From assembly GCA_963733055.1 (NCBI GenBank), contig CAVTBR010000001.1, positions 128,001 to 192,000 of the forward strand: 64,000 bases of DNA. The letters are read 5' to 3'. The DNA is from Candidatus Bathyarchaeota archaeon (GTDB lineage: Archaea; Thermoproteota; Bathyarchaeia; 40CM-2-53-6). Below are positions 6,456 through 56,295 of this stretch, in pieces. The notes beneath the pieces were generated by a model. The model had not been told where the DNA came from and searched no databases. It worked only from the letters and a program-made list of their open reading frames with translations. The first letter of the stretch is position 1; each line of letters begins with the position of its first letter. A program made the position numbers and the translations under genes.

Positions 6456-7214
6456 CTACTCTGCCATATCGTCGGGCAACTTGTACCAGGGAACTTTTTC
6501 TCCGACCCTTGCACGCGCTTTCCAACCCATGCTCTTCGGTTCTTGTTCGATCATGTCGGAAATTCGCTTCATTCGTCCTCTCACAAGTTCTTTGTCGGCA
6601 GATGTCAACTCAAACCGCTCAAGCATGGAGGCGGTCTTGTCGAGAACGAGTGTGAAGGTCTTATACATTCCCCAATCCTTTGAACAAAGCTCCGCTAATC
6701 GCTTCCCGTTGATAGCCACGGGTTTGTCTGAATCCGCGACTTCGTGGTCCAGCAACATTGCCGTGATATCTTTGAAGTCTTTCTCGTTGGTTTTGAAGAT
6801 CTGTAATTTTGTCGCTAGGAGGTCTGCCATGGTCAGGGTTAATGGGTCTAGCGTTAATCTGTCTCTGAGGTCGATCTTGTGGCACATTTCGAAGTAGTCT
6901 AGGAATAGGTCGACTCTTCGCTTATTTGGCAGGTCGAAGAACATTAACCGAGTTGCACTGCGTAAGGCGTTGAAAATCTCGTTTGGGGAATAACCAAGCT
7001 TTGTAAATAATTCTCGAATCTTACGAGACTCCTTTCTGTACCCGACTAGGTCTATGTCCGGATACTTTCTTGAAACACTAGGCCTCTTTGCGCTCGGGCA
7101 TCTGAAGCCAATCGCCGTGCCTCCGAGCAAGCGCAGAGTGATCCCGTTATCTGCGGCGGTTGAGATAAGTCTGTTAGCTTCTCTCAAGATGTCGGATTCG
7201 GTTGTTACAGCCAA
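6456..7214 (-). CDS. Putative nucleotidyltransferase (Pol-beta fold), function unknown
   Basis: LLGGTAI..R.YPDIDL (GG..DxD) and a third acidic residue in VDLF; C-terminal KSMGWK.RAR.G..V.WY. Confidence 0.7.
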   Translation of the reverse strand: MAVTTESDILREANRLISTAADNGITLRLLGGTAIGFRCPSAKRPSVSRKYPDIDLVGYRKESRKIRELFTKLGYSPNEIFNALRSATRLMFFDLPNKRRVDLFLDYFEMCHKIDLRDRLTLDPLTLTMADLLATKLQIFKTNEKDFKDITAMLLDHEVADSDKPVAINGKRLAELCSKDWGMYKTFTLVLDKTASMLERFELTSADKELVRGRMKRISDMIEQEPKSMGWKARARVGEKVPWYKLPDDMAE

Positions 7215-7274
7215 GGCTAATCAGATCAATAAAAAAGAGAGGAGGGGAGTTGCGCTTAAGGTCTTTGACAGGGT

Positions 7275-8888
7275 CTAGGGTGGTGGAATCTCGCCGTAGA
7301 TCTGCGTTATTTTGATGCCGCGTTTCTCGTTCTTGGCGACGAAGATGATGAAGACTAGGACGCCGACTGCCATCCAGAGGACTGAAACGTTCCATGCGAG
7401 CAGTGAGATTCCTACTGTGCTGAGTGCCAGTATCCAGAACATGCCGACTACGCCAGCGGCACCGATTAGGCTCATTACTGGAATGCCGAACAACTTAGTC
7501 TTCATGCCTTTCTCCCAGATGTCAGGCCGTTTGAATGGGAGTACTGTGGCGGTGAATGCGACGATCAAGTAGGCGAAGGCGTACCAGAACGAGCTGTTGG
7601 CTGCAGCCGCAAGGAAGCCGTAGGAGGTTAGGGTTAGGAGTGCCACGATTATTCCGCCTATCATGCATGCGATGGTTGCTGGGACTGGCGTGTGCATTCT
7701 CTCGGACACTTTGCCGAATACCGCCGGGAACATTCGATCGAATGACATTCCGAACATGCACCTAGTTCCGGCCAGGTAAGTTACGATCACTGATGTGATA
7801 GGGTAAAACCACCAGGCCGCAAAAAATAGAACAATAGTCGAACCGGCTAAACTCGCTGAGAACAGAGGCATCGATGGAAGCAACATGTACGGAGCAACGT
7901 GTGCAGCGTCCGTCGCATTTAGTGTCCCGGCGCTATAGAGGTTGTAGACGTAGTTATACTGGAGTATGAAGCCGCCGTAGGCGTTGTAGGCCAGCCAAGT
8001 TACGAGACTGTACCATATTACGGTGCCAATCATGCCCGCCGTGAAGAAGTACATGAATGAGGAACGAGGATTCCTCAATTCTCCACCAACGTAGGCGTTG
8101 ACTTCGTAGCCTGTTAGTGCCCAGAAAATGTACGCAACAATCGCAAGGGTGTCGTTCCATGAGCCCGCCGAGACCCTTGAGACATACCCGGCCAGATTGT
8201 ATTTCGTGGCAAGGCTAGCTATCATCTCGAACGCGCCCGGACCCCACACGTGGTCCCATGCAGCGGGGACGGAACCTGGATTGTTTGTAGCGAAGAGTAT
8301 GGCCGATACGATTAAGCCGAGGGTGTTAAGGCCCCAGATCACCATCATGATCTTCATGTAATGTTTGATTTCGATCATAGCCAGCAATCCGAGGATGATG
8401 ATGATTAGAATGGTGAACTCCACTTGTGGTAGGGTACTGCTGAGCCACGAGCCGAACGAAGTGAGTGCAGGCATGTTGAAGGCGTTACCCCACATTGTAA
8501 ATATGGTTGAGCTTACTGCTCCCATAACGGATGCGACGAGGCCGATTGAGAATATTTGCGCTAACCAGTAAATCCATCCCGTCCCAATCCACCCTACGAA
8601 TGGGTCGACAAAACGGGATCCCCACACGTACGCACCCGCTGCTCTTGGAGTTGTAACGCCAAGCAATGCAAATGTGAAGACGCTGATGATTGTTGGTATG
8701 CCTACTAGTAGGAAAGCGCCGGGTACGCTTCCCATGGGATAGTTGTAGATGACTTCAATCGCGTAGAGCGTTATTCCACTGCCAGCCATAGAGGCCCACG
8801 GTAGCACGAATGAACCGACAGGTCCGATTTCCTTGACGAGCCCTGTAGATTTGCGCAGAAAAAGTTCTACTTTGAATTCTTCGGTCAA
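7275..8888 (-). CDS. APC-family amino acid permease
   Basis: FLRKSTGLVKE N-terminus, PRAAGAYVW, FGMSFDR.FP, multi-TM, C-terminal EIPP. Confidence 0.92.
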   Translation of the reverse strand: MTEEFKVELFLRKSTGLVKEIGPVGSFVLPWASMAGSGITLYAIEVIYNYPMGSVPGAFLLVGIPTIISVFTFALLGVTTPRAAGAYVWGSRFVDPFVGWIGTGWIYWLAQIFSIGLVASVMGAVSSTIFTMWGNAFNMPALTSFGSWLSSTLPQVEFTILIIIILGLLAMIEIKHYMKIMMVIWGLNTLGLIVSAILFATNNPGSVPAAWDHVWGPGAFEMIASLATKYNLAGYVSRVSAGSWNDTLAIVAYIFWALTGYEVNAYVGGELRNPRSSFMYFFTAGMIGTVIWYSLVTWLAYNAYGGFILQYNYVYNLYSAGTLNATDAAHVAPYMLLPSMPLFSASLAGSTIVLFFAAWWFYPITSVIVTYLAGTRCMFGMSFDRMFPAVFGKVSERMHTPVPATIACMIGGIIVALLTLTSYGFLAAAANSSFWYAFAYLIVAFTATVLPFKRPDIWEKGMKTKLFGIPVMSLIGAAGVVGMFWILALSTVGISLLAWNVSVLWMAVGVLVFIIFVAKNEKRGIKITQIYGEIPPP

Positions 8889-9095
8889 AGCAATTGACCG
8901 GAGGGAGGGTACAAGATAGTACGTTTATTAAACTAACTATGCTGGACCGGTCAAATATTACGACGGAAGAGCAACTATAGAGAATAACTGCGACTACTTA
9001 CCGCCTTGTTAGTTCTCGTGAAAGGCAAATTTGAAGCTTCATGCTTAACCGATTCATTTAACTTCAATTCGCCTACTACCCGAAACCGACGCGAT

Positions 9096-21656: not shown

Positions 21657-22538
21657 ATGCAGAGAAAAAACCCTGTAACGATCTTCGTACTCGGGACGAG
21701 TGGTTCCGGCAAAACTACTACAATCGAGTACCTAACGGCACGCCTTACGAACCTAGGCATTCATGTTGGCGTCATCAAGCACATTCACAAGGGCGGTCTA
21801 ACCCTGGACACCCAAGGAAAGGACACATGGCGGCATGCAAAAGCAGGGGCAGAAATTGTTGTTGCCGTAGCCCCCAGGGAAGTTATGGCATTCAAGAGGA
21901 CATCGGCTGAAAATAACCTTGCCAATGCAATCAAGAGTTCGCTTACCGAGCCCATTGATGTTCTCTTCCTGGAAGGGTTCTCAACTGAAGCAACAAAACA
22001 CTCTTACAAGATCGTCACAGCACGCGACGCCACCGACCTCAAGTTTACGTTACGTAAGACCCCGCCTCCAATTCTCGCTGTGACTGGACTCGTGGCGCGA
22101 AGTTCGAACCGGAGACTCATGGCACTTGATCTACCCTCCCAAGGTGCCACGCTAACCTCCATCATCCGCCGCCTGCTCAGACCTTCTGAGTTGCAACGGT
22201 CATTGATGGGGGCGTCGAAAGACCACGGAGGTAAATGTGTAGGACTGGCAGTAGGGATGCGAGCCAGCTATCTGGCATCAAACATTCTCGGCGACCTATC
22301 CTCAAGCGGGGGCACGTTCGGAACAAAACACTGCATCGTGGACGCGTTTAGGTACATGTATCCGAAACTGAGGATCAAAGTGCCGAACAAACGGAACGAG
22401 ACGATCACAATTAAGAAGGAAGACGTTACTCTGTCAATCCGGTTGGCGCCCAAAAAGGAATACAAACGCCCTGAAGAGGTCCTAGACGTCCCGGACGACG
22501 AGTTATTTGAATCCGTAATAATCGTTCAGAGACACTAA
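21657..22538 (+). CDS. mobB: MobB fused to an FmdE/FwdE-like domain
   Basis: GTSGSGKTT, VIKHIH, GKDTWRH..AGA, LEGF; C-terminal HGGKCVGLAVGMRA...HCIVDA. Confidence 0.85.
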   Translation: MQRKNPVTIFVLGTSGSGKTTTIEYLTARLTNLGIHVGVIKHIHKGGLTLDTQGKDTWRHAKAGAEIVVAVAPREVMAFKRTSAENNLANAIKSSLTEPIDVLFLEGFSTEATKHSYKIVTARDATDLKFTLRKTPPPILAVTGLVARSSNRRLMALDLPSQGATLTSIIRRLLRPSELQRSLMGASKDHGGKCVGLAVGMRASYLASNILGDLSSSGGTFGTKHCIVDAFRYMYPKLRIKVPNKRNETITIKKEDVTLSIRLAPKKEYKRPEEVLDVPDDELFESVIIVQRH

Positions 22539-22543
22539 GTAGA

Positions 22544-22833
22544 TCAGTCTCTGATATCTTTGACGATTTCCGCTTTTGTCTTGCCTTCGGTGCTTATTCC
22601 CAACGATCTTGCGGCGACTATTAGCGGCTCAGGAGAAGACGCCCCGGTTCTGGCGTTGATGTTGATGGTAGAAGGTAACTGGAAGGTGAAGCCATTCCTT
22701 TGGAGGCCTTTTCGAACTCGCGCTTCGCCAAAGCCACTGATCTAGCCATCTCAGGAAGCTTTTGGGGCCCCCATAGGAATACGACTACTATTACGACCGC
22801 AACGGCGATTGCTTCGAATCCTACTAAGGCCAT
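22544..22833 (-). CDS. tatA: Twin-arginine translocase TatA; -1 frameshift, probably in the G-run at 22642-22645
   Basis: TM-LWGPQKLPEMARSVALAKREF; the alternative frame gives a typical tail LIVAARSLGISTEGKTKAEIVKDIRD*. Confidence 0.85.
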
Positions 22834-22842
22834 GTTCACAAC

Positions 22843-24259
22843 TCACGCGGTCGATGGTGGCGCGCTGTTGAAGATTTGTTCATAAATTTCAGCCTGCCTA
22901 CACTTCGGACAGAGCCTGATCACATCTTCGCTGCTTTCGATCATGCCAGAAACCTTCTTGAACATTTTCATGGAGATGTATGGAGTCTTGCATCTCGTAC
23001 AAGGAACCAGTTCATCTTTGTAGACAGTTTTTGTTGATAGCATGATTGGCCCATCCATTTGGGACAGCGTTATGGCATGTTCCGGACAGATTCTTGCGCA
23101 ATATCCACATCCTGTGCACTCTTCCGATGTGAAATCAAGTCTATCCTGTTGGATTGCGAGGGCTCGGTGGGGGCAGGATTCTACACACGCGTAACAGAGT
23201 GTGCATGAGTCGGCTATGTCCATCGTTGTTAGTTCCAAGCCTGATGCTTGTGCTTGCCTCTTTGATATCGATTCTAGAGAGACGACATAATCCTTCCACG
23301 CACTTCCCGTTGGGCTAAATGACGTGTCACGGGCTCGAACGGATTTGTGAATCTCGTTCATCTTCTCCAGCGTCAAGCGTTCCCTCGACGTAGGCCACGA
23401 TGGGCCCGTGTTCATCTAGAATTGATGAGACCTGGTTTGCTGCACGCTTTGCGTTTTCTTTGGCAGCGCACAATCCATCTGCGCAATGGACTAACACCGC
23501 ATCCAGTGAGGAATTCGCAGCCAACGCGAGTTGCCTGACACCCATGACTCCAACTCCTGGCACCTCTTCTACAACAGTCCACGGAGGCGGTGTTATGCTT
23601 CGTTTGTCACAGGTTACTATGAGCGTTTTCGTAGGCGCCGAAGAGGACCGTATTGCCGTTAGCAAGCCACGATAGGCGTCTTCTGAGAATTGTGGAATCT
23701 GGATAGCTGCCACCGGGCAGACACCCGCGCATAACCCGCACCTTATGCAGGCCTCACTCGAAACAGTTACCGAATCAGATTCGATCTTCAGAGCACCGGG
23801 CGCTGGACATGCATCAACGCACTTCGAGCAGCCGAACTTAGCTTCGCACGACTCGTCTACTACGATCGGTGTGTCGCTTGGGCTTGGAGAGTTGCCCCGC
23901 AATGGTAGGAAAAGAAGTTCTCGTCTTGAGATAACTTGCTTGCGCGGAGCCTCTCTCTTCGCGAATACCTTGTCTGACTTCGTGAGTCTGCCCAACTTTG
24001 CATCTACTAAGAAGAGTGCCTCCTCTAACGTAGCCGTCCTCTGCACCACGATTGTTTCCTTTAGAGGTGCATCTATCTCCCGTGTCGACGGTGACGCGTT
24101 TCTTATCAGGAGCACGGCTTGGGGGTCAGTGTCTGAGGAGAAATTGATGTTGTTGGTTTCGTCGTAGACGACTGCTTCGCTCCAATTGGAACGAATGTGC
24201 GCCGCTATATTCTCTCTGAGTGCCGGTTCCAAATCAGTAATGTAAACGGTCGCCCTCAT
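22843..24259 (-). CDS. Polyferredoxin (multi-4Fe-4S) protein; frameshift near 23375
   Basis: CSKCVDACP, CIRCGLCAGVCP, CTLCYACVESCP, CTGCGYCARICP, CTRC..CPKC spread over ORFs 23327-24259 and 22843-23415. Confidence 0.8.
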
Positions 24260-24897
24260 TCGGAGCTGCTTCCCAGGTAATCTGATTCATTCTTGAGGAA
24301 TGATTCCAATAATCCTGCTGCTGCACGGTAGAAGGATGAATTTGTCGATTTAAGAACGCAGTCTGCAAACCTATCAACCCAATTTTCGAGGTGTTCCTTT
24401 AGAAATTCCTGTTCCATCTTCCTTCTTCTTGCGGATTCTTGCGGGTTACCTTGCTGAATGGATTTGAGTTCCTCCGCGCAAAGAAAATGCATGAATTCCA
24501 TCTCGACGGCTATGTGGTCTGGCAAATCGCTGAAATTCTTGGGAAGTACAAGGCCCGCTTCTGCATACTTGTGTCGTACGTCGGCGGCCGACGGACCCAT
24601 TACCAGCCCCTTCTCCATTATCGGCCTGTCCTGCCGGTATACGGATTCGTATGGAGGACATGGAACCTTTCCTGGGCCGACGAACAATCTAAGATGTTCT
24701 TTGCTGAGGTTCTCTGTGGGCAGGTCCGGCTCTTTGGGAGCGGGCTGGTCGTTTAGGTGCAGCGAATGGTATGCTTCTAAGACAGCCTCGTATAGCCGTC
24801 CGGATTCCGTTCTTGGAGTAGAGAAGGCAAGGGTGAGTATACCGTACACGTTAGCTCTGAACTCGCTCTCTTCGGTTACTTTAAGACTCATCGTCAC
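24256..24897 (-). CDS. TorD/DmsD-family Mo-enzyme maturation chaperone
   Basis: LFVGP..PPYESVY..PDHIAVEMEFM..FLKEHL..W. Confidence 0.93.
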   Translation of the reverse strand: MTMSLKVTEESEFRANVYGILTLAFSTPRTESGRLYEAVLEAYHSLHLNDQPAPKEPDLPTENLSKEHLRLFVGPGKVPCPPYESVYRQDRPIMEKGLVMGPSAADVRHKYAEAGLVLPKNFSDLPDHIAVEMEFMHFLCAEELKSIQQGNPQESARRRKMEQEFLKEHLENWVDRFADCVLKSTNSSFYRAAAGLLESFLKNESDYLGSSSE

Positions 24898-24933
24898 CCT
24901 GCCCCCTGTTTCTACGATAATGTAACCCGTGGG

Positions 24934-25230
24934 TTACGGTAGTATAAGCGAGCCTATGGATGTTATCACGACGAAGACAGCGAGGTAGCCAACTATGAGC
25001 AACACCAACCATATGACGTAGTTCTTGAGGTGTAGCGTGTTTGCGAGCGCTGCCGAGAGCAGCACAATTATTCCCAACAACCAGAGTAGCGGTGCCCAAA
25101 GCACTCCTGTGCTTGCGAGTGGGATTGTCACTACGGGATTCGTTGAGTCTCCCAAGACCCAAAGCGCGACGCCAGCAATTACCAACAGCAGACCGAGGAG
25201 GCCGATTGCGATGGTCCTACCACTTGTCAA
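24934..25230 (-). CDS. Small 3-TM membrane protein inside the Mo-enzyme operon
   Basis: Three hydrophobic helices; 3 nt after the NrfD gene. Confidence 0.75.
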   Translation of the reverse strand: MTSGRTIAIGLLGLLLVIAGVALWVLGDSTNPVVTIPLASTGVLWAPLLWLLGIIVLLSAALANTLHLKNYVIWLVLLIVGYLAVFVVITSIGSLILP

Positions 25231-25233
25231 CTT

Positions 25234-26553
25234 CTATTCCCTCACAACATCCAATTCGATGATTGGAAACATTTTGACGAATAACACATACAGTAGAGCT
25301 GCCATCCAGAAAGTACCCAAGATGATGGATGCTTCGGTTACCGTTGGAATGTAAATGCCGGTTTGATACAGTGGTGGATTGAGTAGCGAGGGTACTACAA
25401 TTGTGAATCGTTTTATCCAGAAAGCGATGTTCAGAATTATTGATGCAACAAAGGTTAGCGTGGCGCTGAATGTTCGTTTCGCGAAGACCGGTTTGAGCAG
25501 GATTATTGCAGGTATTCCAAATCCTATAATTGCCATCGGCCAGAAGATTATGGCGTAGGGGCCGCTCCACAAGAAGTCGGAGACTTTCAGTTCGTCAGAT
25601 GGGCCCATGTAGCTTGTCGTTAGTACTTCCGCGATCCAGAGGTAGATGTATATGATTAGCACATTTCTGAGAGCCCACGAGATTCCTCTCAGGACTTCAT
25701 CAGTGATCAATGACTGCCATTTGTAGAGCCATCTGAATATCCACGCCAATGAGTAAACTGCAGCGACACCGCTAACGATTGCGCCGACTACGAAGTAGAT
25801 CGCGAATATCGTGGAGTACCAGCCTGATCTTGCAACCATTAGGCCGAAGACGAAGGAAACGACGCTGTGTACGGTGACCATTATTGGGATGATGGCGATT
25901 GCAAGCCACCACAAGGTCTGCGTGTGTCTCGCTTTGTCGGTTTCAGTTCCTTCGTAGTGCATGGCTAGGCGTTTGTAGAACCATTCCCGTTTCGGTAGCT
26001 TGTGAGCTAACTCGTCTATGTCGCCTCGTAAGCTGAGGTAGAGGTAGACGATTGTTGCCATGAAATATGTTGTAATTGCCGAGAGGTCCCATAGTAGGGG
26101 AGCTTGGAATCTGCCGAACTGTAGCAGGTTGAACAACCTATCTGGCCGTCCTACGTCAAAGACGATTGATAGTGCCGCCATCGGTAGTGCTACTAGAGTT
26201 AGAACTTCAGCCATTCGCACGACGACCTTGTACTTGTTTAAGCTCATGAGCCTGACGGAAGCTGAGATTGCTATTCCGGCGTGGCTTATTCCTATCCAGA
26301 AGATGAATGTGGTAACGTAGATGCCCCAAGGCGAACCACCGGCAACCCCATATGCCATGTAGTTGGGTGCGTTGTACACGCTACGCATACCAGTCACTAT
26401 GAGTCCTTCGCTTAGTTGTAGGTACCAGCAGTACAGGAACCACCCGGTTAACACCAGCAGGGCCCCGACGAAGACGTAAAATGCCGTACCTGTCGTGAGA
26501 AGCGGCTGTAGAAGCGACTTTTCGTCGACTTTCACGATGGAACCCTTCTTCAA
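25234..26553 (-). CDS. NrfD/PsrC-family membrane quinol-oxidising anchor
   Basis: PWGIY.TTF.FWIG.SHAG, DVGRPDR, PLLWD, VHSVVS, KRF.IVVP. Confidence 0.93.
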   Translation of the reverse strand: MKKGSIVKVDEKSLLQPLLTTGTAFYVFVGALLVLTGWFLYCWYLQLSEGLIVTGMRSVYNAPNYMAYGVAGGSPWGIYVTTFIFWIGISHAGIAISASVRLMSLNKYKVVVRMAEVLTLVALPMAALSIVFDVGRPDRLFNLLQFGRFQAPLLWDLSAITTYFMATIVYLYLSLRGDIDELAHKLPKREWFYKRLAMHYEGTETDKARHTQTLWWLAIAIIPIMVTVHSVVSFVFGLMVARSGWYSTIFAIYFVVGAIVSGVAAVYSLAWIFRWLYKWQSLITDEVLRGISWALRNVLIIYIYLWIAEVLTTSYMGPSDELKVSDFLWSGPYAIIFWPMAIIGFGIPAIILLKPVFAKRTFSATLTFVASIILNIAFWIKRFTIVVPSLLNPPLYQTGIYIPTVTEASIILGTFWMAALLYVLFVKMFPIIELDVVRE

Positions 26554-27218
26554 GTAGCGCTTACCTCCTGAGGCCTCGTAGGATTACGAGGTGGAATGTA
26601 ATACACGGAAGGCTCTGTGCCTAACTCTTCGCGAAGCCTGGTTGTGGGTCTCGTTTGGATTATTTGTGAGACTTGGCTGTTCGGGTCGTCGAGGTCGCCG
26701 AAGAAACGTGCGCCCGCAGGACAAACTTCTATGCAAGCGGGTGTGAGGTTCCCTACGTCGACTCTCTGGAAGCAGAACGTACACTTTTCGGCAACGCCAA
26801 CTGGTCTCACGGGAACCGCTGGATTTCCTAGCTGGAATTGGGAGTTGGGTGGGGCTTGGACTGGAGGCTTCCAGTTGAACGCGGGGATACCGTATGGGCA
26901 GGCGACTAGGCAGTAACGGCAACCGATGCACCTGTCCCAATCAAGGAACACAATCGCATCGTCGCGTTTTCGAAGGGCGCCTACTGGGCATACCTTAACA
27001 CAAGGCGCGTTGTCGCAGTGTTGACAATTGATCGGCAGATAGGTCATTCTTACATCCGGATAAGTGCCCGAAGGCGTGTCCATCTCTTTACCACCGGTAG
27101 TTAAGATACGGTTCCACCATATCCCGATGGGCTCGTTGTTCTCCGCTTTACAGCCGAGGGCGCATGTCCAGCAACCTAAGCATCTGCTCAGGTCGATTAC
27201 CATCGTTAGTTTTGTCAT
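26550..27218 (-). CDS. Four-cluster Fe-S subunit (DmsB/NrfC type)
   Basis: CLGCWTCALGCK, CQHCDNAPCVKVCP, CIGCRYCLVACPY, KCTFC..PACIEVCP. Confidence 0.95.
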   Translation of the reverse strand: MTKLTMVIDLSRCLGCWTCALGCKAENNEPIGIWWNRILTTGGKEMDTPSGTYPDVRMTYLPINCQHCDNAPCVKVCPVGALRKRDDAIVFLDWDRCIGCRYCLVACPYGIPAFNWKPPVQAPPNSQFQLGNPAVPVRPVGVAEKCTFCFQRVDVGNLTPACIEVCPAGARFFGDLDDPNSQVSQIIQTRPTTRLREELGTEPSVYYIPPRNPTRPQEVSAT

Positions 27219-27229
27219 TTCATCTCACC

Positions 27230-29725
27230 TTATGATTTTTTCACTTCTGCCAGACAATCGTAATATGCGGTGTTAGATTGGAAGAGGAACACGACGGATT
27301 GTGCGGGGTTAATTTTCTGGTGCGTGAGCATGTTTACTGTAGCGGTAGGGAATTCTTGCCAATCGCCTTGGTATGCGTTGATAACCCCAGGTCTGATACC
27401 ACTGGTTACTCGAGCTAGGATCTGAATTGAACCACGATCGTTGAACACCGTCACCGTATCGCCGTCATTGATTCCCCTAGCTTGAGCGTCAATCGGGTTT
27501 ATTTCAACAAAGGACTTGGGAATGATTTCTCGGAGCCATGGTAAGTTGTCCCATTGAGTGTGAGTTCTGAACTTTGTATGCGCCGTCAGGAAGACGAGCG
27601 GATATTTTTGGTAGAGTGGATTAGTCGGCGAAGCTTCAATCGGTTCATTGTAGATTGGGAGAGGCATTGAGTAAGGGACGAGGGATTCAGTGTAGAATTC
27701 TATTCTTCCTGACGGGGTAGGGAAGTGTTGTTGGTAGTACGGGACGTATGGAAGCGTGATGGGTTGGAATGAAGCGGTTCCAAAGTCTTTGGGTGTCAAT
27801 GCGACGACTCCTTCGCTCTTCAACGTATCCAACGTTAAGCCGGATGGAAGGCCGCTGAGCAATAGGCTAAGGTAGTCGTCGGGGGTTTTGTCGAAGTAGT
27901 TCCCCTGTCCCATCTTCTGGGCGACCTCGGCGAACATGTCAAGGTCGGATTTGCATTCCCAGAGTGGGTCGATTATTTTCGGCATGTACTGGAAGTAGTA
28001 GTTGCCTCCAGGGAGCATGTCCTCTCTCTCGTATTGCGTGGCGCATGGGAGAACTATGTCGGCGTACTGAGCCGTCGGACTCAGGAACATGTCTGAGACT
28101 ACGACGAAATCAAGCGCCTTTAGCGCCGCGATCGTGCGATTGGTATCTCCCTGTTGGTTGACGAAATTGTCTACTGGGAACCAAGCGGCTTTGATCGGGA
28201 ATGGTTTGCCTGTTTCCACCGTGGCGCAGAACGAAAGTGGAGGAAGGTACGTGTACGCCTTCTTGTCGGGGTTCAACCAGTCAGGAAGATCTAAGGCAGC
28301 ATCGAGAAGAGCGCCGTTGTAAGTTGTGACGCCTCCGCCATGTATTCCTATGTAGCCGCATATGGCGGAGAGTGTTATCATGGCCCTGTAGGTCAAGTCG
28401 CCGTAGTACCAATGTGATATTCCTCCGAAACCCGCTTTGATTGCCGCGGGAGACCTGGTCGCGAATTCCTTCGCGAGGTTCTCGATTGTGGACGCAGGGA
28501 TCCCCGTTATTTTCTCCGCTTCCGAAGGGGGGTACTGGCTCACCAAGTCGACGAGCAATTGAAAGGCGGGTTTGCACGTGGTTCCCGCAGCGGTGAATGA
28601 GCCTGCAAGAGCGGGGGTTATGCCGCTTTGATCATAAGGTACAATTGATTTGCTATTCGAATCATATACCATGTACTTAGTTGAGCTTCCGGCCGTCACC
28701 ACGTCTTTTTGCCTGAGAAAGAGCTGCGTATCTTGACGAACCAAGAATGGAGCAACGGTGTAGTTCGTCACATAATCTACATTGTGGAGCTGCTCGTTTA
28801 TGATCACATTAATCATGCTGAGCGCTAGCGCCCCGTCGGTTCCGGGACGAATGGAAATCCACTGGTCGGAGAGAGTTGCGGTAGAGGTGAATCTTGGGTC
28901 GATGTTGACTACTTTCGCTGTTGTGCCGTTCGGGTTCAGCTGGGTTACTCCTTCGGAGGTAATGGTGCCTTCTCGTGCGTCGAGGACGAATCGCATGTCC
29001 GGCACGTCAGTTTCTGCTAGATTGTTCCCCCAGAGGATGATCATACGTGAATTTCGTAAATCTGAGAGATCGTGACCGTCGAACGATCCTAAGATCTCAT
29101 TTGCGCCACACGGGCTAGCCGAGTCACCCTCATTGTCTCCTTCAAAGTCCCCGGCGCTCGCGCCTATCACACTCGCGAACCTGTAACCGGCGCCGATTAC
29201 CCCGTTTAACGCGGAGAGGCTTCCCGTGTAAGGTGCGATGTAGACCGCCGTCGGACCATACTTCTGGGCGGTTTCCATGAATTTGGTTGCGATCGTGGTT
29301 GTTGCTTCATCCCACGATATCTGTTCCCACTGCCCACTTCCGCGTGGGCCGACGCTTTTCATGGGATACTTCAGTCGGTCCGGGTGGTAGACGTATTGAA
29401 TGTTAGAGATCCCGCGCAAGCACACTCTTGGCGGAAAATTGGGGTCGTTGAATGTCGCGTTACTTATCCTCGTAATGTTACCGTCAATCACCGTAACCGA
29501 TAACCCGCAGGACCCGTCGCAATTGTTGCAGTGCGCGGTTCTGAAAATCTGAGGTATACTGCTCGCGTTGGCGAGCGGAATCTTGGACGACACTCGCTGT
29601 AAAGCGTTCAGAACAATACCGTCTGAAGATACTGAGCCGTATGCAAATAGCCCGCCCGTGATTGCAGATAGTTTGAGAAAGTCTCGTCGATCCAGTCTAG
29701 GTCCTGAATTCCTAGGTTTAGCCAA
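27230..29725 (-). CDS. Tat-exported DMSO-reductase-family molybdopterin catalytic subunit (substrate unknown)
   Basis: DRRDFLK Tat signal; HCNNCDGSC..CLRG; RLKYPM..ISWDEA; PGTDGA; ADIVLP; H.Q; V.VFNDRG. Confidence 0.95.
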   Translation of the reverse strand: MAKPRNSGPRLDRRDFLKLSAITGGLFAYGSVSSDGIVLNALQRVSSKIPLANASSIPQIFRTAHCNNCDGSCGLSVTVIDGNITRISNATFNDPNFPPRVCLRGISNIQYVYHPDRLKYPMKSVGPRGSGQWEQISWDEATTTIATKFMETAQKYGPTAVYIAPYTGSLSALNGVIGAGYRFASVIGASAGDFEGDNEGDSASPCGANEILGSFDGHDLSDLRNSRMIILWGNNLAETDVPDMRFVLDAREGTITSEGVTQLNPNGTTAKVVNIDPRFTSTATLSDQWISIRPGTDGALALSMINVIINEQLHNVDYVTNYTVAPFLVRQDTQLFLRQKDVVTAGSSTKYMVYDSNSKSIVPYDQSGITPALAGSFTAAGTTCKPAFQLLVDLVSQYPPSEAEKITGIPASTIENLAKEFATRSPAAIKAGFGGISHWYYGDLTYRAMITLSAICGYIGIHGGGVTTYNGALLDAALDLPDWLNPDKKAYTYLPPLSFCATVETGKPFPIKAAWFPVDNFVNQQGDTNRTIAALKALDFVVVSDMFLSPTAQYADIVLPCATQYEREDMLPGGNYYFQYMPKIIDPLWECKSDLDMFAEVAQKMGQGNYFDKTPDDYLSLLLSGLPSGLTLDTLKSEGVVALTPKDFGTASFQPITLPYVPYYQQHFPTPSGRIEFYTESLVPYSMPLPIYNEPIEASPTNPLYQKYPLVFLTAHTKFRTHTQWDNLPWLREIIPKSFVEINPIDAQARGINDGDTVTVFNDRGSIQILARVTSGIRPGVINAYQGDWQEFPTATVNMLTHQKINPAQSVVFLFQSNTAYYDCLAEVKKS

Positions 29726-29786
29726 CGCGAATACCTAACCCGAAGGGACGCGGAGAATGCGTTAAGAGACCTCTGCACTCATTCTA

Positions 29787-29839
29787 CATACGACTATGTT
29801 CTAGTACCGACGGTAACACAACCCATACGAATTTGTTGT
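29787..29839. promoter_or_regulatory. Two degenerate direct-repeat boxes (CATACGACTATGTT / CATACGAATTTGTT) upstream of the Mo-enzyme operon
   Basis: 37-nt spacing; each resembles the CKAA-N4-TTMG palindromes at 31188 and 31944. Confidence 0.4.
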
Positions 29840-29990
29840 GCAATTTGTTTGAAATAGTTACCGCGTGGAAGCGCACACAACGGCAACCGAATCGTAGTCG
29901 GCCCGCAACTTGAACTCTCGAGAAAAATAGAAGAAGCCGTATCTTGAATGAAACTATGATGACCTCGTCACCGCCAGGCAGGCACGGAGT

Positions 29991-30614
29991 ATGAGTTCAC
30001 CCCACAAAATAGGCGAAGGGCTAGGGGCAGTAATCCTCGCGGGCGGCAAAGCAACTCGGCTTCCCAACAAATGCTTGAGGTCAGTTGGCGGGAAGGAACT
30101 CGTTCTCCACGTTTTCGAGAGAGTCTCAATGGCAGTTTCGGAAATTGTGGTAGTCGGAAAAACCGTCCAGGACGTTATCCGCCTTCAGCAAGTCCTCCCC
30201 GCCGGTCAAATTATTCACGATGACTCGTTGGCCCAGAGCCCTTTGGTAGGCTTACTCTGCGGATTGCGCGCACTTCGGACCGAGTATGTGTTCGCAGCTG
30301 GTTGCGACATGCCTTTGCTAGAGCCGCAAATCATTCGCTCTCTTCACGCCAAAGCCTTAGGACAAGACGCCGCCATTCCATACTCGAACGGAAAACTCGA
30401 ACCATTATGCGCCGTCTACAAACGAGCTAGCGCTGTGAATGCTGCTTCAAACTGTCTACAAGGTAAACGTACGAGCATCCTAGAGATGGTCAGAGAGCTG
30501 AGGGACATCATCCGGGTTAGCAAGGAGGATCTTCGAAATCATGACCCCCGCCTCCTGAGCTTCATTAACATAAATACCGAGGATGACCTGAAAAATGCGG
30601 AAGCGTTCCTATAG
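29991..30614 (+). CDS. mobA: Molybdenum cofactor guanylyltransferase
   Basis: ILAGGKATRL.NK, PL.GL, GCDMP, EPL.AVY, NINTEDDL. Confidence 0.93.
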   Translation: MSSPHKIGEGLGAVILAGGKATRLPNKCLRSVGGKELVLHVFERVSMAVSEIVVVGKTVQDVIRLQQVLPAGQIIHDDSLAQSPLVGLLCGLRALRTEYVFAAGCDMPLLEPQIIRSLHAKALGQDAAIPYSNGKLEPLCAVYKRASAVNAASNCLQGKRTSILEMVRELRDIIRVSKEDLRNHDPRLLSFININTEDDLKNAEAFL

Positions 30615-30632: not shown

Positions 30633-31127
30633 CTAGCGAAAAATCTCTCTCCCTGTCTTTTTGTTGGGTAAATTTAGGTTCAAGTACCAAAAGAGTACGT
30701 TCTCCTCTCTTGAAAAATGTCCATGCAACAACAGATTCAGCTTCAGGATAGCGCTTTTCTCGCCGTGGCTGATTTGATCGAACACCTGCCGCATTAGATC
30801 TCTGATCTCTTCGTGCTCTAACCTTATCCCTTCAGACACGCAGGCATCTAGGTAACGTTGCAGAAGAGGAAACAAAACACGCTCCTCTATTGTGCGATGT
30901 TGAATAAACAGCTCTTCAAGACGATTGACGTGTTCGAGTAGCTTCGGATTACTTCTGAACCCAACATGCTTGGAGGCATTCGTCAGTAGATCCATTTGTC
31001 GTCTCATGTCATCGTGATCGCTTTGAAGCTCGAAGAGTACCCTGCGATTCTCATCGCAGTCGGCTCTCAAATTCCTCTCTACGCCAAGACGATTCTTGGA
31101 ATTCGGTAAGTCACTTAGACCTTTCAA
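30633..31127 (-). CDS. Hemerythrin-like (HHE) domain protein
   Basis: DH..., H...EE.VLFP, EH..I, HFSREENVLF. Confidence 0.85.
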   Translation of the reverse strand: MKGLSDLPNSKNRLGVERNLRADCDENRRVLFELQSDHDDMRRQMDLLTNASKHVGFRSNPKLLEHVNRLEELFIQHRTIEERVLFPLLQRYLDACVSEGIRLEHEEIRDLMRQVFDQISHGEKSAILKLNLLLHGHFSREENVLFWYLNLNLPNKKTGREIFR

Positions 31128-31255: not shown

Positions 31256-31924
31256 ATGTTAGAAGCGGTTGTCAGCATCACCCCACCACACAGTTGGATT
31301 AAACGACTCACCAGCGAGTTTCCCGCTGTCATACGTGTATTGGACTGTCGAAGCCTACCTCACGGGAAAGGGGTTCAGGAGCTCTTCGAAATATCTAGCG
31401 CTCCCGAGAATTCAGAGAGGATTGTGGAACATCTTCGAGCGGACGCTTACGTGTACGACGTTGATATTGTGAAGGGCGAGCGCGGAAGAGTCGTTGGATC
31501 CCTCAAGACCCGTAAGTGTACCGCGTGTCGAACTTTCGCGGGTGCGAATTGCTTCCTAATCTCTGCCGCGAGTAAACCCGATGGGAGACTCGAATGGACA
31601 GTTCTAGGCAATGATACGGTAGTAAAGTCGTTAATGCACGAATTAGAGAAAGAAAACGTAACCGGAGAGGTCGTCAAGGTTTCGAAGTTAGAAGACGAGA
31701 AGCAGTTAACCGCGAGACAGGAGAATATTCTGCAGATTGCGCTGGAGAAGGGCTATTTTGAGTTTCCGAAGAAAATCACACTCCGCGAATTAGCGAAGAC
31801 GCTTGAAATCGCCCCCGCAACATTAACCGAGATCCTGAGGCGCGGACAGAAACGTGTGTTACAGGACCACTTCAAAGGCCACCCTTCGGTGCTGGGAAAA
31901 AGAACTTCCTCACACCTTTCTTGA
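31256..31924 (+). CDS. Bat-type HTH-10 transcriptional regulator, DmsR/NarO-like
   Basis: LTARQ..L..A...GYFEFPKKITLRELA..L.I...TL.E.LRRG; N-terminal domain has C..CTAC..C. Confidence 0.88.
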   Translation: MLEAVVSITPPHSWIKRLTSEFPAVIRVLDCRSLPHGKGVQELFEISSAPENSERIVEHLRADAYVYDVDIVKGERGRVVGSLKTRKCTACRTFAGANCFLISAASKPDGRLEWTVLGNDTVVKSLMHELEKENVTGEVVKVSKLEDEKQLTARQENILQIALEKGYFEFPKKITLRELAKTLEIAPATLTEILRRGQKRVLQDHFKGHPSVLGKRTSSHLS

Positions 31925-31996: not shown

Positions 31997-33604
31997 GTGA
32001 GAAAGATGCGGGAAGGTAAAGTTAGGAGTTCGCGGCTGGCGACCAGAGGTTACATTGCCAAAGCCTCATTGATCCTGTTGCTGATTACAATCTCTCTTCT
32101 GTCAATTCCATTTTTCACTCTCAACGTTTCGGGCGATACTAACTCTCCGGCGTATGCACCGAACCGCAGTAAGTCACCCACTGATATACCGTCAGTCCCC
32201 TCACCATCCGACAGAGTAGTGGTAAGGCTTGTTACGGAGGAGAAACTGGGGCAATTGGCCGATGGGGTCACATATAATTTCTGGACGTTCAATGGAACGG
32301 TTCCTGGACCGCTCATTCGGTTGCGTGTGAATCAAACGGTTGAGATGCATATCATTAACCCCCCGAACAGCACTATGACGCATTCGATCGATTCTCACGC
32401 AATCCTTGGCACCGGCGGTGGCAGTGCGTATTCACAAACGCCACCCGGTCAGGAATCAGTTTTCCAGTTCAAAGCCCTGAGAGTGGGGCTGTTCATGTAC
32501 CACTGTGCAAGCCCTGACATTCCCACACACATAGCGGAAGGAATGTATGGAATGATTCTCGTTGAACCGCCCGGTGGTCTATCAAAGGTTGACAGGGAAT
32601 TCTACATAGCCCAGGGCGAATTCTACACACTAGGGCCGTTCGGGCAGAAGGGTTTTCAAGGTTTTAGTTTTCAGAAGGCCAACGCCGAAACGCCAGATTA
32701 CATTGTGTTCAACGGCAGAGTGGGTTCACTAACTGGCAACGGATCGCTCAGCGTTAACGTGGGAGAGACGGTTCGCATCTTTTTCCTCAACGCTGGACCA
32801 AATCTCGATTCATCCTTTCACATCATAGGCGGAATGCTCGACAAGGTCTACGTTGAGGGATCGATTGCCTCGTCACCCTTACTGAACGTTCAGACAACCC
32901 TCGTCCCGGCGGGCGGGTCTGTAATGATTGAGTTCACAGCGGAAGTAGCCTCGAAGCTCACTCTAGTTGATCATTCTCTCTTCAGAATACACCAAGGAGC
33001 GTTAGGCATCATAAATGTGGTAGGACCGGCAAATCCCGCAATAATCTCCTCGATAAAGAACGCCACAATCACCCAAACGATGAACATGAGCATGACCACA
33101 ACGGAGAACGTATCCAATACTTCGAGCGTCGGGGCGTCAAATAATACGGTGTTAATACTGAACTATGCGTACGTTCCCTTGGACTTGACTGTCCCGGCGG
33201 GAACAACTGTAACGTGGGTAAACCAAGATTCGGTTGGGCACACTGTTACAGAAGGTGATCCGAATTCGCCTAAACAGGCCTCTCTTCGAGTCTTTGATTC
33301 TTCAGGCGAAGCTGTTACGGGTAAGGTTGCGTTGATCGGGGCAGGCGAGAGTTGGAGTTATACCTTCACGACTCCAGGCACTTACGAATACTATTGCATC
33401 GTTCACCCATACATGATAGGCCACATTATCGTCGGCCCAACTTCCGGGTCGAATAGTTCGCAGGGTTCAGGTTACGGTGATCTAACCAACTTTACGATAA
33501 CATTCACTGGCAGGGATCTAGTAGGCCTAAGCGCCGTGGGAATAGTCGTGCTCGTGGCCTTGATGCTCGTCTTCGCGAGGTCGGGCAGAAAGAAGACCCG
33601 TTGA
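31997..33604 (+). CDS. nirK: Copper nitrite reductase with C-terminal cupredoxin domain and membrane anchor
   Basis: HSIDSH, YHCA..THIAEGMYG, SSFHIIG, LVDH; then HTVT..YYCIVHPYM; C-terminal TM plus basic tail. Confidence 0.93.
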   Translation: MRKMREGKVRSSRLATRGYIAKASLILLLITISLLSIPFFTLNVSGDTNSPAYAPNRSKSPTDIPSVPSPSDRVVVRLVTEEKLGQLADGVTYNFWTFNGTVPGPLIRLRVNQTVEMHIINPPNSTMTHSIDSHAILGTGGGSAYSQTPPGQESVFQFKALRVGLFMYHCASPDIPTHIAEGMYGMILVEPPGGLSKVDREFYIAQGEFYTLGPFGQKGFQGFSFQKANAETPDYIVFNGRVGSLTGNGSLSVNVGETVRIFFLNAGPNLDSSFHIIGGMLDKVYVEGSIASSPLLNVQTTLVPAGGSVMIEFTAEVASKLTLVDHSLFRIHQGALGIINVVGPANPAIISSIKNATITQTMNMSMTTTENVSNTSSVGASNNTVLILNYAYVPLDLTVPAGTTVTWVNQDSVGHTVTEGDPNSPKQASLRVFDSSGEAVTGKVALIGAGESWSYTFTTPGTYEYYCIVHPYMIGHIIVGPTSGSNSSQGSGYGDLTNFTITFTGRDLVGLSAVGIVVLVALMLVFARSGRKKTR

Positions 33605-33682: not shown

Positions 33683-34093
33683 ATGGAATCGCGGCGCAAG
33701 TTCCTTCGACGCGCGGCAGCCACCGCATTGGGGGCAGGGGTTCTGCTAGCTGGACTGGATTTAACCGGGACCTTTGCTGCCTCACACGAGGTGCGCTCCG
33801 TTGGAGCTTCGATAACGACAGGGGAGCAACCAAACACCCGAGCTCAACTCATCACTGTAACGGTCTTCTATTCCATGCTCACTCAGTTTACCTCTTTGAG
33901 CCAGGAAGTCTTTGTGTTACAGAGCCCCGCCTCGCTAAAGGACCTGATCAAAACCATCGCGATCAGACATCCATCCATGGCGCAGATGATGCAGATGATG
34001 TTGACGCTCGTGAATGGGGTTCCCACGAAGCCTAACGCATCCTTGGAAGGCGGAGATGTAGTGCAACTCATTCCATTGTCCGCGGGCGGATAG
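33683..34093 (+). CDS. MoaD/ThiS/SAMP-like beta-grasp protein with an N-terminal Tat signal
   Basis: MESRRKFLRR-hydrophobic-TFAA; ITVTVFY..LVNG..LEGGDVVQLIPLSAGG. Confidence 0.85.
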   Translation: MESRRKFLRRAAATALGAGVLLAGLDLTGTFAASHEVRSVGASITTGEQPNTRAQLITVTVFYSMLTQFTSLSQEVFVLQSPASLKDLIKTIAIRHPSMAQMMQMMLTLVNGVPTKPNASLEGGDVVQLIPLSAGG

Positions 34094-34098
34094 AGTCT

Positions 34099-34275
34099 AT
34101 GCGACTACAGAAACGCAAGACGCGGAAGACCGAGGGTGAAGAATACACCAAGTACGTAGTCGTAATCCCGTCGGAACATGTAGAAGAATTGGGATGGGAA
34201 GTAGGACAAGAACTGGAACCTGAAGTCAAAGGAAAGAAACTTGTGATCTCACGAAAGGAAACGAAACAAGGCTAA
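34099..34275 (+). CDS. AbrB/MazE/SpoVT-type DNA-binding protein
   Basis: Manual translation, 58 aa: MRLQKRKTRKTEGEEYTKYVVVIPSEHVEELGWEVGQELEPEVKGKKLVISRKETKQG. Confidence 0.8.
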   Translation: MRLQKRKTRKTEGEEYTKYVVVIPSEHVEELGWEVGQELEPEVKGKKLVISRKETKQG

Positions 34276-54780: not shown

Positions 54781-56007
54781 TTGGGAGTTGTACAATCACT
54801 CGTCTGTCGTCGCTGTGATGCTGAAAGCCCGCCGCAAAGAACCATCTCATGTCCACAATGTTTTGCGCCACTTGACGTCACTTACGACCTTGATTCAATA
54901 GAGCTTACTCACTCTTCGTTTGAATCACGGGCGAGAACACTCTGGAGATACAAGGAGCTGCTCCCTGTTCAAGATTCGAAGAACATTGTTGATTTGAACG
55001 CTGGATTTACTCCGCTTCATCGGTGCAGAAATCTTGAGCGAGTTCTTGGATTACAGGAGCTGTACGTGAAGAATGATGGTTTGAACCCGACTAATTCTTT
55101 CAAGGACAGACCTGCTTCTGTGGCTATCTCCAAAGCGATCGAATTTCAGCTCGGGGTTGTTGGTGCAGTCTCGACTGGAAACCTCGCAGCCGCAATGTCC
55201 GCTCATGCAGCTAAAGCAAACCTACCCTGCTACATATTCATCCCTGAGGGGATAGAGGCAGGCAAGATCGCGCAGATCAACGCTTACGGCCCTCATATAT
55301 TGAGCGTCAGGGGGACCTACGATGACGCCAACCGTCTCGCGTACTTGGCTTCAGAGGAGTATGGTTGGACGATTGCCAACATAACCATGCGTCCCTACTA
55401 TGTCGAGGGTTCCAAGACTCTTGCTTTCGAGGTTTGTGAACAGTTAGGTTGGCAGGCTCCGGATCATATGATTGTAGCCGTTGGAAGCGGCGCCCTGATG
55501 CGAGCAATCTGGAAAGGGTTTGATGAATTTCACAAGATTGGCCTAATCGGGAATCGAACTCCGTCCATTCACGGCGCTCAAGCATCGGGATGCGCTCCTG
55601 TCGCCACAGCTTTCGAAAATAACACCGAAAAAATACGGCCGGTACCAAAACCCGACACAATAGCAAAGAGCATAGCGATCGGTGATCCGGGGGATGGAGC
55701 TTACGCCATCGAGGTTGCCAAGAGAACTAGTGGCACGATAGGCCAAGTGACGGATTCCGATATTCAAAAAGCCATAACCCTTCTCGCATCCAAAGAAGGA
55801 ATATTCGCTGAACCCGCCGGCGCGGTAACCATTGCATTACTCAACAAACTTGTCGACGAGGGACGTATCGATACCGATGAAAGCGTCGTCTGCTGCGTAA
55901 CGGGTAACGGGCTGAAGTCCGTCGAGGCTGTTCCAACCTACAACCAGCGTTGGCATACCCTCGACCCAACGCTTCAATCATTGAACGCGATTGTAGAAAA
56001 TGGGTGA
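54781..56007 (+). CDS. thrC: Threonine-synthase-like PLP enzyme
   Basis: N-terminal CxxC..CxxC, LWRY..LLP, NPTNSFKDR, STGN, EG.KT, EPA, TGNGLK. Confidence 0.88.
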   Translation: MGVVQSLVCRRCDAESPPQRTISCPQCFAPLDVTYDLDSIELTHSSFESRARTLWRYKELLPVQDSKNIVDLNAGFTPLHRCRNLERVLGLQELYVKNDGLNPTNSFKDRPASVAISKAIEFQLGVVGAVSTGNLAAAMSAHAAKANLPCYIFIPEGIEAGKIAQINAYGPHILSVRGTYDDANRLAYLASEEYGWTIANITMRPYYVEGSKTLAFEVCEQLGWQAPDHMIVAVGSGALMRAIWKGFDEFHKIGLIGNRTPSIHGAQASGCAPVATAFENNTEKIRPVPKPDTIAKSIAIGDPGDGAYAIEVAKRTSGTIGQVTDSDIQKAITLLASKEGIFAEPAGAVTIALLNKLVDEGRIDTDESVVCCVTGNGLKSVEAVPTYNQRWHTLDPTLQSLNAIVENG

Positions 56008-56295
56008 ATCATCTTCGGACAAATAACCGTTAAACTGTACGGGGCAGCGGTCGAAGCCGCGAAACGGCAGACCGAGACAAAAGTTGAAGCGTCAAATGTT
56101 CGCGAACTTCTCGGCAGGCTCTGTGACGATTTCGGCGACTCATTCAAACGCAAGGTTATCGATTCGAAAGGTGGACCTCAACCTTTCGTGAGTGTCTACG
56201 TCAACAACACTGACATACGTCATCTAAACTACGTCGAAACAGAGTTGAAGGATGGCGATGAAGTTCTGATTCTTCCCGCCGTAGCAGGCGGTTAA
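56000..56295 (+). CDS. MoaD/SAMP ubiquitin-like sulfur carrier (start disrupted)
   Basis: Not in the ORF track: ITVKLYG..VYVNNTDIRHL..ETELKDGDEVLILPAVAGG*; ATG at 56000 needs one more A in the A-run near 56021. Confidence 0.85.

Follow-up and report, generated by a model that had tools for sequence, protein, structure and literature searches.

A MoaD-fold protein with a conserved twin-arginine signal is encoded beside a membrane-anchored copper nitrite reductase and is a tentative copper-centre maturation factor

We analysed a 64,000-nucleotide stretch of a Candidatus Bathyarchaeota archaeon genome (assembly GCA_963733055.1, contig CAVTBR010000001.1, positions 128,001 to 192,000 of the forward strand), which is called the window here; its genome carries the handle G000. 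Within it, a gene for a small protein of the MoaD fold lies directly downstream of nirK, the gene for a copper nitrite reductase. The protein begins with a signal of the twin-arginine translocation (Tat) type and ends in Gly-Gly, and we refer to it as Tat-MoaD. The gene and the parts of its product lie as follows.

33683..34093, + strand: Tat-MoaD gene, an open reading frame (ORF) from ATG to TAG, 136 aa plus stop by translation
33683..33784, + strand: twin-arginine signal peptide or signal anchor, aa 1-34, with a motif kept in the alignment of homologues
33785..33838, + strand: linker, aa 35-52, of low model confidence; longer and Ser/Thr-rich in distant relatives
33839..34090, + strand: MoaD/ThiS-type beta-grasp domain, aa 53-136, from the AlphaFold2 (AF2) model and Foldseek
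33974..34003, + strand: Met-rich stretch S98-L107 (SMAQMMQMML), holding the family-wide Met columns 102 and 106
34085..34090, + strand: C-terminal Gly-Gly, abutting the stop codon

The ORF is intact, and its protein starts MESRRKFLRRAAATALGAGVLLAGLDLTGTFAAS, contains S98-MAQMMQMML-107 and ends in SAGG. The N-terminus reads, in order, MESRRKFLRR with the motif E-S-R-R-K-F-L-R, a weakly hydrophobic h-region, AAATALGAGVLLAGL, and the c-region DLTGTFAAS. It scores 16.6 with the NCBIfam model TAT_signal_seq (TIGR01409), marginally below the cut-off of 16.7. Cleavage at the putative FAA site of the original prediction is possible, as is retention of the signal as an anchor. An AF2 model built from 59 relatives places a helix at residues 4-17, followed by a region of low predicted local distance difference test values (pLDDT 52-60 across residues 21-50) and a well-defined domain (pLDDT 88-98 across residues 51-130). 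The best Foldseek matches are MoaD 6jbz_B (E 5.6e-8, target template-modelling score 0.87), Pyrococcus furiosus MoaD 1vjk and SAMP1 3po0 (E 2.7e-5). ThiS (PF02597) is the sole Pfam family found; it matches residues 69-136 with 28.4 bits (cut-off 22.5). Fold and Pfam score together place Tat-MoaD in the ThiS/MoaD superfamily. One source labels proteins of this type "molybdopterin converting factor small subunit" and another "MoaD/ThiS family protein". The cut-off of the archaeal MoaD subfamily model is not reached (TIGR01687 moaD_arch, 21.4 bits against 49.5); because of this, the lack of a linked MoaE or E1 gene and the export signal, we do not regard Tat-MoaD as MoaD proper.

The N-terminal signal is a property of the whole family. 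Among 22 close homologues (49-74% identity), E-S-R-R-x-F-L-R is kept in all save two, a K-R variant and an entry truncated at the N-terminus. Searched with a profile, 1.84 billion cluster representatives yielded 204 clusters at E<=1e-3, of which 93 reach E<=1e-10. A metagenome scan built on a sub-alignment of distant members gave 80 loci, with the ORF present in 79. After dropping identical cores, the family set comprised 180 members, the most distant at ~25% identity to the window protein, and 135 of these had an N-terminal region long enough to judge. The arginine pair is RR in 128 of the 135 and KR in the other 7. It is preceded by S or T in 110 and followed by F, A or L two residues later in 108, by L at +3 in 121 and by R or K at +4 in 114. 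The uncharged stretch after the motif has a median length of 18 residues (interquartile range 15-21.5, n=135). These statistics identify the N-terminus as a Tat consensus and not a chance RR, and the alignments point to a real signal that selection maintains. Signal and domain are separated in the family by a linker of 29 residues (median), which is Ser/Thr/Ala-rich in distant members. The protein ends in GG in 77 of the 79 metagenome ORFs, the remaining 2 being cut by contig ends; the 100% GG among the 180 aligned members reflects a set chosen for ending in GG. The Tat signal, beta-grasp domain and terminal Gly-Gly that an original prediction had read from this ORF are real and conserved in the family, and the signal that it asked of homologues is present in close and distant relatives alike. 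G000 encodes one TatC (145 bits, G000:C3:238843-239523) and three TatA proteins, one of them inside the window.

One hit was set aside. A 750-aa protein with ~9 repeats in the representative library (P0092) gave nine matches to the RHP-x-M helix region (profile positions 83-107). Its appearance suggests a repeat artefact or else an unrelated, repetitive protein, and no count includes it.

The taxonomic range of the family is sketched by leads. Samples of 400 genomes each from the phylum and from the class held no signal-bearing member outside the window's own genus, and neither did the class of genome G046 (351 genomes). An Atlas cluster of 71 members is mostly labelled Candidatus Bathyarchaeota, the phylum being known for 4, and NirK relatives at 73% and 62% identity carry the NCBI name "Nitrososphaerales archaeon"; we treat both labels as leads only. 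The family occurs on many peat, wetland and soil metagenome contigs. Among the sequencing runs listed, the single holder is one soil DNA run (share 0.25) and no RNA run appears.

We compared the columns of the 180 family members with those of the 41 closest signal-less, canonical MoaDs. Several positions set the family apart.

Met at column 66: family 94%, canonical MoaDs 7%
Met at column 102: family 97%, canonical MoaDs 20%
Met at column 106: family 98%, canonical MoaDs 25%
Pro at column 82: family 96%, canonical MoaDs 34%
Gly at column 112: family 98%, canonical MoaDs 44%
Column 128: Asp in 78% of the family, Ala in 73% of canonical MoaDs
C-terminal tail: IPxxAGG in the family, PPV(S/A)GG in canonical MoaDs

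The second Pro of the tail, found in 90% of canonical MoaDs, is not among the top residues in the family, and an H-P motif is common to both groups (94% of the family, 95% of canonical MoaDs). Three methionines are thus near-invariant and specific to the family, and M66 is the sole one of them at an otherwise variable position. The methionine patch noted in the original prediction therefore holds in part: M102 and M106 are family-specific, joined by M66 elsewhere in the domain, whereas the rest of SMAQMMQMML is lineage-specific (M99 in 14%, M103 in 37% and M105 in 11% of the family).

The gene upstream of Tat-MoaD encodes a NirK with an unusual plan.

31997..33604, + strand: nirK, a membrane-anchored copper nitrite reductase with a C-terminal plastocyanin-like domain and a C-terminal transmembrane helix (TIGR02376, PF00127)

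NirK scores 325 bits with TIGR02376 (cut-off 296.3) and matches PF00127 at residues 390-479. The type-1 and type-2 copper ligands and the catalytic Asp/His are invariant in 31 aligned NirKs (H129, D132, H134, H169, C170, H178, M183, H275 and H326), as are the ligands of the fused cupredoxin (H415, C467, H470 and M473). All 38 full-length NirKs at these loci have a basic N-terminus with a transmembrane helix and lack a conserved RR, and for this reason they are probably exported unfolded. In many of the 38, the helix is followed by a coiled-coil-like segment and Ser/Thr linkers, and the form found in the genus adds the C-terminal helix. Distant NirKs (loci L054-L125) share a "GMSSV-x-AL" start of the transmembrane helix, then a heptad-like LDTTQSL-x-x-QISSLQSQ and Ser/Thr linkers; the heptad-like segment may be a trimerising stalk. 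NirK of this distant type was absent from a phylum sample of 250 genomes.

In the window, 78 bp separate the end of nirK from the start of the Tat-MoaD gene, and this operon-like arrangement is conserved. Because the 80 metagenome loci were gathered by Tat-MoaD patterns alone, the count of linkage is unbiased in this respect. NirK is the immediate upstream neighbour on the same strand at 52 of 79 loci, and at 42 of the 50 with at least 400 bp of upstream sequence, the gaps being mostly below 70 bp; the link to nirK that the original prediction had seen at this one locus is real and conserved. Among 61 relatives searched, 10 have NirK, and a Tat-MoaD of the nirK type is present in 7 of these 10 and in none of the 51 NirK-negative genomes, some of which carry a paralogue. 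In genome G413 (locus L040, G413:C15:26000-44000, ~7200-8900), the NirK frame is shortened to 350 aa and misses the family cut-off, and the Tat-MoaD gene is broken by a frameshift and an in-frame TAG, so that the two genes look to have decayed jointly.

Two further genes belong to the syntenic block around nirK; the order hemerythrin, HTH_10 regulator, NirK, Tat-MoaD is kept in 4 loci of the genus.

31256..31924, + strand: HTH_10 regulator (PF04967, E 1e-17), near Tat-MoaD in 25 of 79 metagenome loci
30633..31127, - strand: hemerythrin-domain protein (PF01814, E 2.7e-12), a syntenic neighbour of nirK

On the downstream side, a 58-aa ORF of the AbrB/MazE type (SpoVT; 34099-34275, + strand) begins 6 bp past the Tat-MoaD stop codon. 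It is not conserved at other loci.

Tat-MoaD proteins also occur away from NirK. G000 itself encodes a second one of 117 aa (ERRSFLR…VAGG; G000:C3:12543-12890, - strand; locus L046, 4812-11044), and the same arrangement around this paralogue is found at L038, L044, L045, L122 and L127. The cluster includes a protein with weak CuA/COX2 similarity (matches to Protein Data Bank entries at E 4e-4 to 1e-3), an NrfC/PsrB-like 4Fe-4S protein that lacks a signal peptide, a 645-aa NrfD protein, a 186-aa protein without an assigned family and an Ig-like protein with a weak resemblance, in its N-terminal part, to the cupredoxin extension of NirK (E 0.01). No signal-bearing molybdenum subunit is encoded there. 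In another context, shared by L069, L070, L071 and L076, NirK is absent and a secreted 277-aa protein is encoded directly upstream of Tat-MoaD; a membrane thioredoxin-like (TlpA-type) protein and a factor resembling Caa3_CtaG/DUF1404 follow it, with a small plastocyanin-like protein nearby. As far as these matches go, which are weak for the paralogue cluster, the contexts appear to share a theme of outward-facing copper proteins of the cupredoxin type and their assembly.

We tentatively favour the view that Tat-MoaD is a maturation factor for the copper centres of NirK. In this model, Tat would carry the MoaD-fold protein across the membrane already folded. Once outside, it might be released; more likely it would be tethered through the uncleaved signal helix and the flexible linker. 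It probably stays membrane-tethered, because a long Ser/Thr linker is ill-suited to a released domain of 84 residues and because NirK is built likewise. There it would serve the nitrite reductase encoded just upstream, itself membrane-anchored and outward-facing. The beta-grasp domain would bind Cu(I) at a Met-lined surface (M66, M102 and M106) beside the flexible Gly-Gly tail, and the copper would then be passed to the type-1 and type-2 sites of NirK and to its fused cupredoxin, which would have been threaded out unfolded and metallated outside. We prefer this view because NirK, apparently exported unfolded, would need loading outside, because the contexts of the family point to copper assembly, because the usual chaperones were not found, and because there is a precedent in AccA (see below). 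Neither PCuAC nor Sco was found in G000, which is 96% complete.

Several points weigh against this interpretation. The binding of copper is predicted from sequence only, the family has no Cys, and its single near-invariant His, H96 (94%), is equally kept in cytoplasmic MoaDs (95%). Canonical MoaDs also have hydrophobic residues (L/I/M) at columns 102 and 106, so M102 and M106 may be partly buried and structural. The copper assignments of the neighbours in the paralogue cluster rest on weak matches, and a CopC-domain protein in G000 indicates that other copper-handling proteins exist. Finally, it is not obvious why a pure copper chaperone should require a strictly kept GG, or Tat over Sec, although fast and tight folding of the beta-grasp domain could by itself force the use of Tat.

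The closest functional parallel that we can propose lies in Neisseria. AccA, of the PCuAC family, is described as a dedicated periplasmic Cu(I) chaperone of the nitrite reductase NirK (AniA) with a His/Met motif (PMC13006917). By analogy, Tat-MoaD may likewise be a small extracytoplasmic protein that loads a copper nitrite reductase through Met/His chemistry. AccA has an unrelated fold and family, and Tat-MoaD lacks its HXnMX21/22HXM motif. More generally, Tat-MoaD has no match to, or signature of, the known copper chaperones PCuAC, Sco, CopC and CusF, so that a chaperone role would be analogous and not homologous. Periplasmic Cu(I) sites of the CusF, CusB and CopC type are Met-based and thioether-rich, as befits an oxidising compartment. 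Tat-MoaD resembles them in its three near-invariant Met and has no kinship to them in sequence or fold.

Another helper of a copper enzyme, the MelC1 "caddie" of Streptomyces tyrosinase, carries a Tat signal and aids copper insertion. It is a small protein whose gene forms a two-gene operon with that of its extracellular copper enzyme (PMC2758597). MelC1 differs in fold and is encoded upstream of its partner, whereas Tat-MoaD is encoded downstream; tyrosinase itself bears no signal, whereas NirK has its own anchor. Tat-inserted Rieske iron-sulfur proteins, which keep an uncleaved signal anchor, resemble Tat-MoaD in their RR motif and in a hydrophobic helix that is possibly kept as a tether, and a cluster of Rieske Tat signals was among the weak neighbours in an Atlas feature search (score 0.77, a lead only). 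The Rieske domain is unrelated, and the Tat-MoaD domain has no cofactor. With MoaD and SAMP1 themselves, Tat-MoaD shares the beta-grasp fold, a ThiS score above the cut-off, the H-P motif and the terminal Gly-Gly. It differs from them in the Tat signal and linker, in the IPxxAGG tail, in the three family-specific Met and in being operonic with NirK and not with cofactor biosynthesis genes.

Tat-MoaD could instead be a non-catalytic subunit or regulator of NirK, an unlikely alternative but the most substantial one. Here, the tethered domain would dock on NirK or its cupredoxin with the Gly-Gly tail in a narrow pocket and would stabilise, gate or protect the enzyme. One candidate for the pocket is the channel through which substrate reaches the type-2 copper, where the terminal carboxylate could mimic nitrite. 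The tail of MoaD inserts into MoaE in a comparable way, and a carboxylate can occupy type-2 copper as a nitrite analogue. Such a role would account for a GG that is strictly kept (77/79) though no E1 is linked, and it sits well with the fixed gene order and short gaps, with the common design of an N-terminal anchor followed by a Ser/Thr linker in both proteins, and with family-specific hydrophobic and Met positions that could make a protein-binding patch. However, it leaves the contexts without NirK unexplained, both the cupredoxin, TlpA-like and CtaG-like set and the NrfD/FeS cluster. Nor did we obtain an interface: a complex prediction of the NirK ectodomain (50-485) with the MoaD domain (53-136) gave a score of 0.01 (mark 0.32). 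This outcome counts neither for nor against a complex, NirK having been supplied as a monomer and thus without the type-2 copper channel at the trimer interface.

It is quite unlikely that Tat-MoaD is a ubiquitin-like protein (Ubl) that is charged at its GG by a housekeeping E1, as a thiocarboxylate or a conjugate, and is then exported folded through Tat to act on copper enzymes outside. We consider improbable a specific form of this idea that follows the original prediction, by which the E1 would charge the GG in the cytoplasm (adenylate, thiocarboxylate) before Tat export and the thiocarboxylate would serve as Cu(I) ligand, sulfur donor or reductant. Its appeal is that it would account together for the use of Tat, since the protein would be finished inside, where ATP is, and for the invariant GG. 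The enzymes are at hand, as G000 encodes four ThiF-type E1s, along with roughly nine further ThiS/MoaD proteins. Against it, BLAST with the four E1s of G000 detected no E1 in the ORFs of the 94 loci compared, and no linked MoaE, JAMM or rhodanese gene was seen in the neighbourhoods, MoaE not having been searched as a family. The number of E1 copies over 23 genomes of the genus does not track Tat-MoaD, the carriers G405, G419 and G422 having 2, like most non-carriers. The IPxxAGG tail differs from the canonical PPV(S/A)GG, and NirK needs no sulfide. A further high-scoring ThiF-type E1 (286-296 bits, frames of 399-492 aa) is found in G407, G410, G412, G413 and G414, four of which have NirK. We considered this class as a dedicated partner and rejected it, as it is missing from the carriers G000, G405, G419 and G422.

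A role as a donor of the Tat signal, in which the small protein would bind a folded, signal-less partner in the cytoplasm and take it through Tat, as MelC1 does for Streptomyces tyrosinase, seems decidedly improbable. The paralogue cluster would suit it, with a 4Fe-4S protein that has no signal and no signal-bearing molybdenum subunit; in the window, the PsrA-like subunit carries RLDRRDFLK. MelC1 is likewise a helper encoded with an extracellular copper enzyme (PMC2758597). The main partner needs no such carrier, however, as all 38 full-length NirKs own an N-terminal membrane anchor. For the same reason, the piggy-back export tag on conjugated cargo that the original prediction suggested is unlikely for NirK. 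Covalent, sampylation-like conjugation, whether to a target before the protein is exported or to a lipid or a component of the cell surface, is very improbable: a terminal GG on a SAMP1-like fold and the E1s of G000 would permit it, but no E1 or JAMM gene is linked, NirK is separately anchored, there is no precedent and nothing points to a target. That Tat-MoaD is an ordinary cytoplasmic MoaD is scarcely credible: in-frame TTG (L16) and GTG (V37) codons could place the true start past the RR motif, or the N-terminus could be no working export signal (TAT_signal_seq falls 0.1 bit short, and a molybdenum-enzyme cluster with MobA and MobB lies nearby), but the motif is kept at the protein level over 135 divergent members, distant relatives have long Ser/Thr linkers, the molybdenum cluster is not syntenic at other loci, a canonical 84-aa MoaD is encoded elsewhere and the moaD_arch score is 21.4 against 49.5.

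MoaD, ThiS, SAMP and ubiquitin-type proteins depend on ATP and E1 enzymes for their chemistry and are for that reason classic residents of the cytoplasm. Tat-MoaD is a real and conserved new variant on this known fold, with a mechanism that we can only propose. Full-text literature searches returned no description of an exported or Tat-bearing MoaD, ThiS or Ubl protein, nor of a link to NirK, in agreement with the original prediction, which knew of no such described system. Term searches of surveys of archaeal Ubl proteins (PMC2948915) and of beta-grasp proteins (PMC1949818) gave no "signal peptide" and no secreted ThiS or MoaD in the text covered, which did not extend to the supplements, where such arCOG neighbourhoods are possibly listed. 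Either the fold has taken on an extracellular task that needs no E1, or the cell exports a charged carrier, and both would be new. If the C-terminus were charged before export, this would be the first Ubl or sulfur-carrier chemistry outside the prokaryotic cytoplasm, a categorically new finding, and the export of a post-translationally charged carrier would be a new reason for using Tat. Under the copper-centre maturation that we favour, the family would be a candidate answer to how archaeal extracytoplasmic copper enzymes (NirK, cupredoxins, CuA-type) obtain their metal where PCuAC and Sco are not found. As the family is found on so many peat, wetland and soil contigs, it also bears on the formation of NO and N2O by uncultured soil archaea.

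Next to the hemerythrin gene, the window holds a complete Tat-dependent cluster of the Psr/DMSO-reductase type (21657-30614), which also includes two ferredoxin-like proteins, and a gene of the tatA type.

21657-22538: MobB-FmdE
22690..22812, - strand (G000:C1:150690-150812): tatA-type gene (PF02416, 33.1 bits), beside the molybdenum-enzyme cluster
24256-24897: NarJ/TorD-like chaperone
25234-26553: NrfD
26550-27218: FeS subunit
27230-29725: molybdenum subunit (PsrA-like), 831 aa, with RLDRRDFLK
29991-30614: MobA

The original prediction had placed Tat-MoaD in a locus with tatA and had named molybdenum enzymes among its possible targets. A tatA is indeed present in the window, but it lies ~11 kb away in the neighbourhood of the molybdenum cluster, so that the statement is loosely true. 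The link to the molybdenum enzyme is not conserved, being seen in the window and in one broken relative; the cluster (25234-29725) was rejected as a conserved partner, as it is syntenic just in the broken G413 locus.

Canonical proteins of the superfamily are encoded elsewhere in the genome. The separate 84-aa MoaD lies at G000:C2:64715-64939. Within the window, a pyridoxal phosphate-dependent (PALP) enzyme is followed by a canonical 88-aa ThiS-family protein (54781-56295, the latter at 56029-56295); the two form a CysO/CysM-like sulfur-carrier pair that is unrelated to Tat-MoaD.

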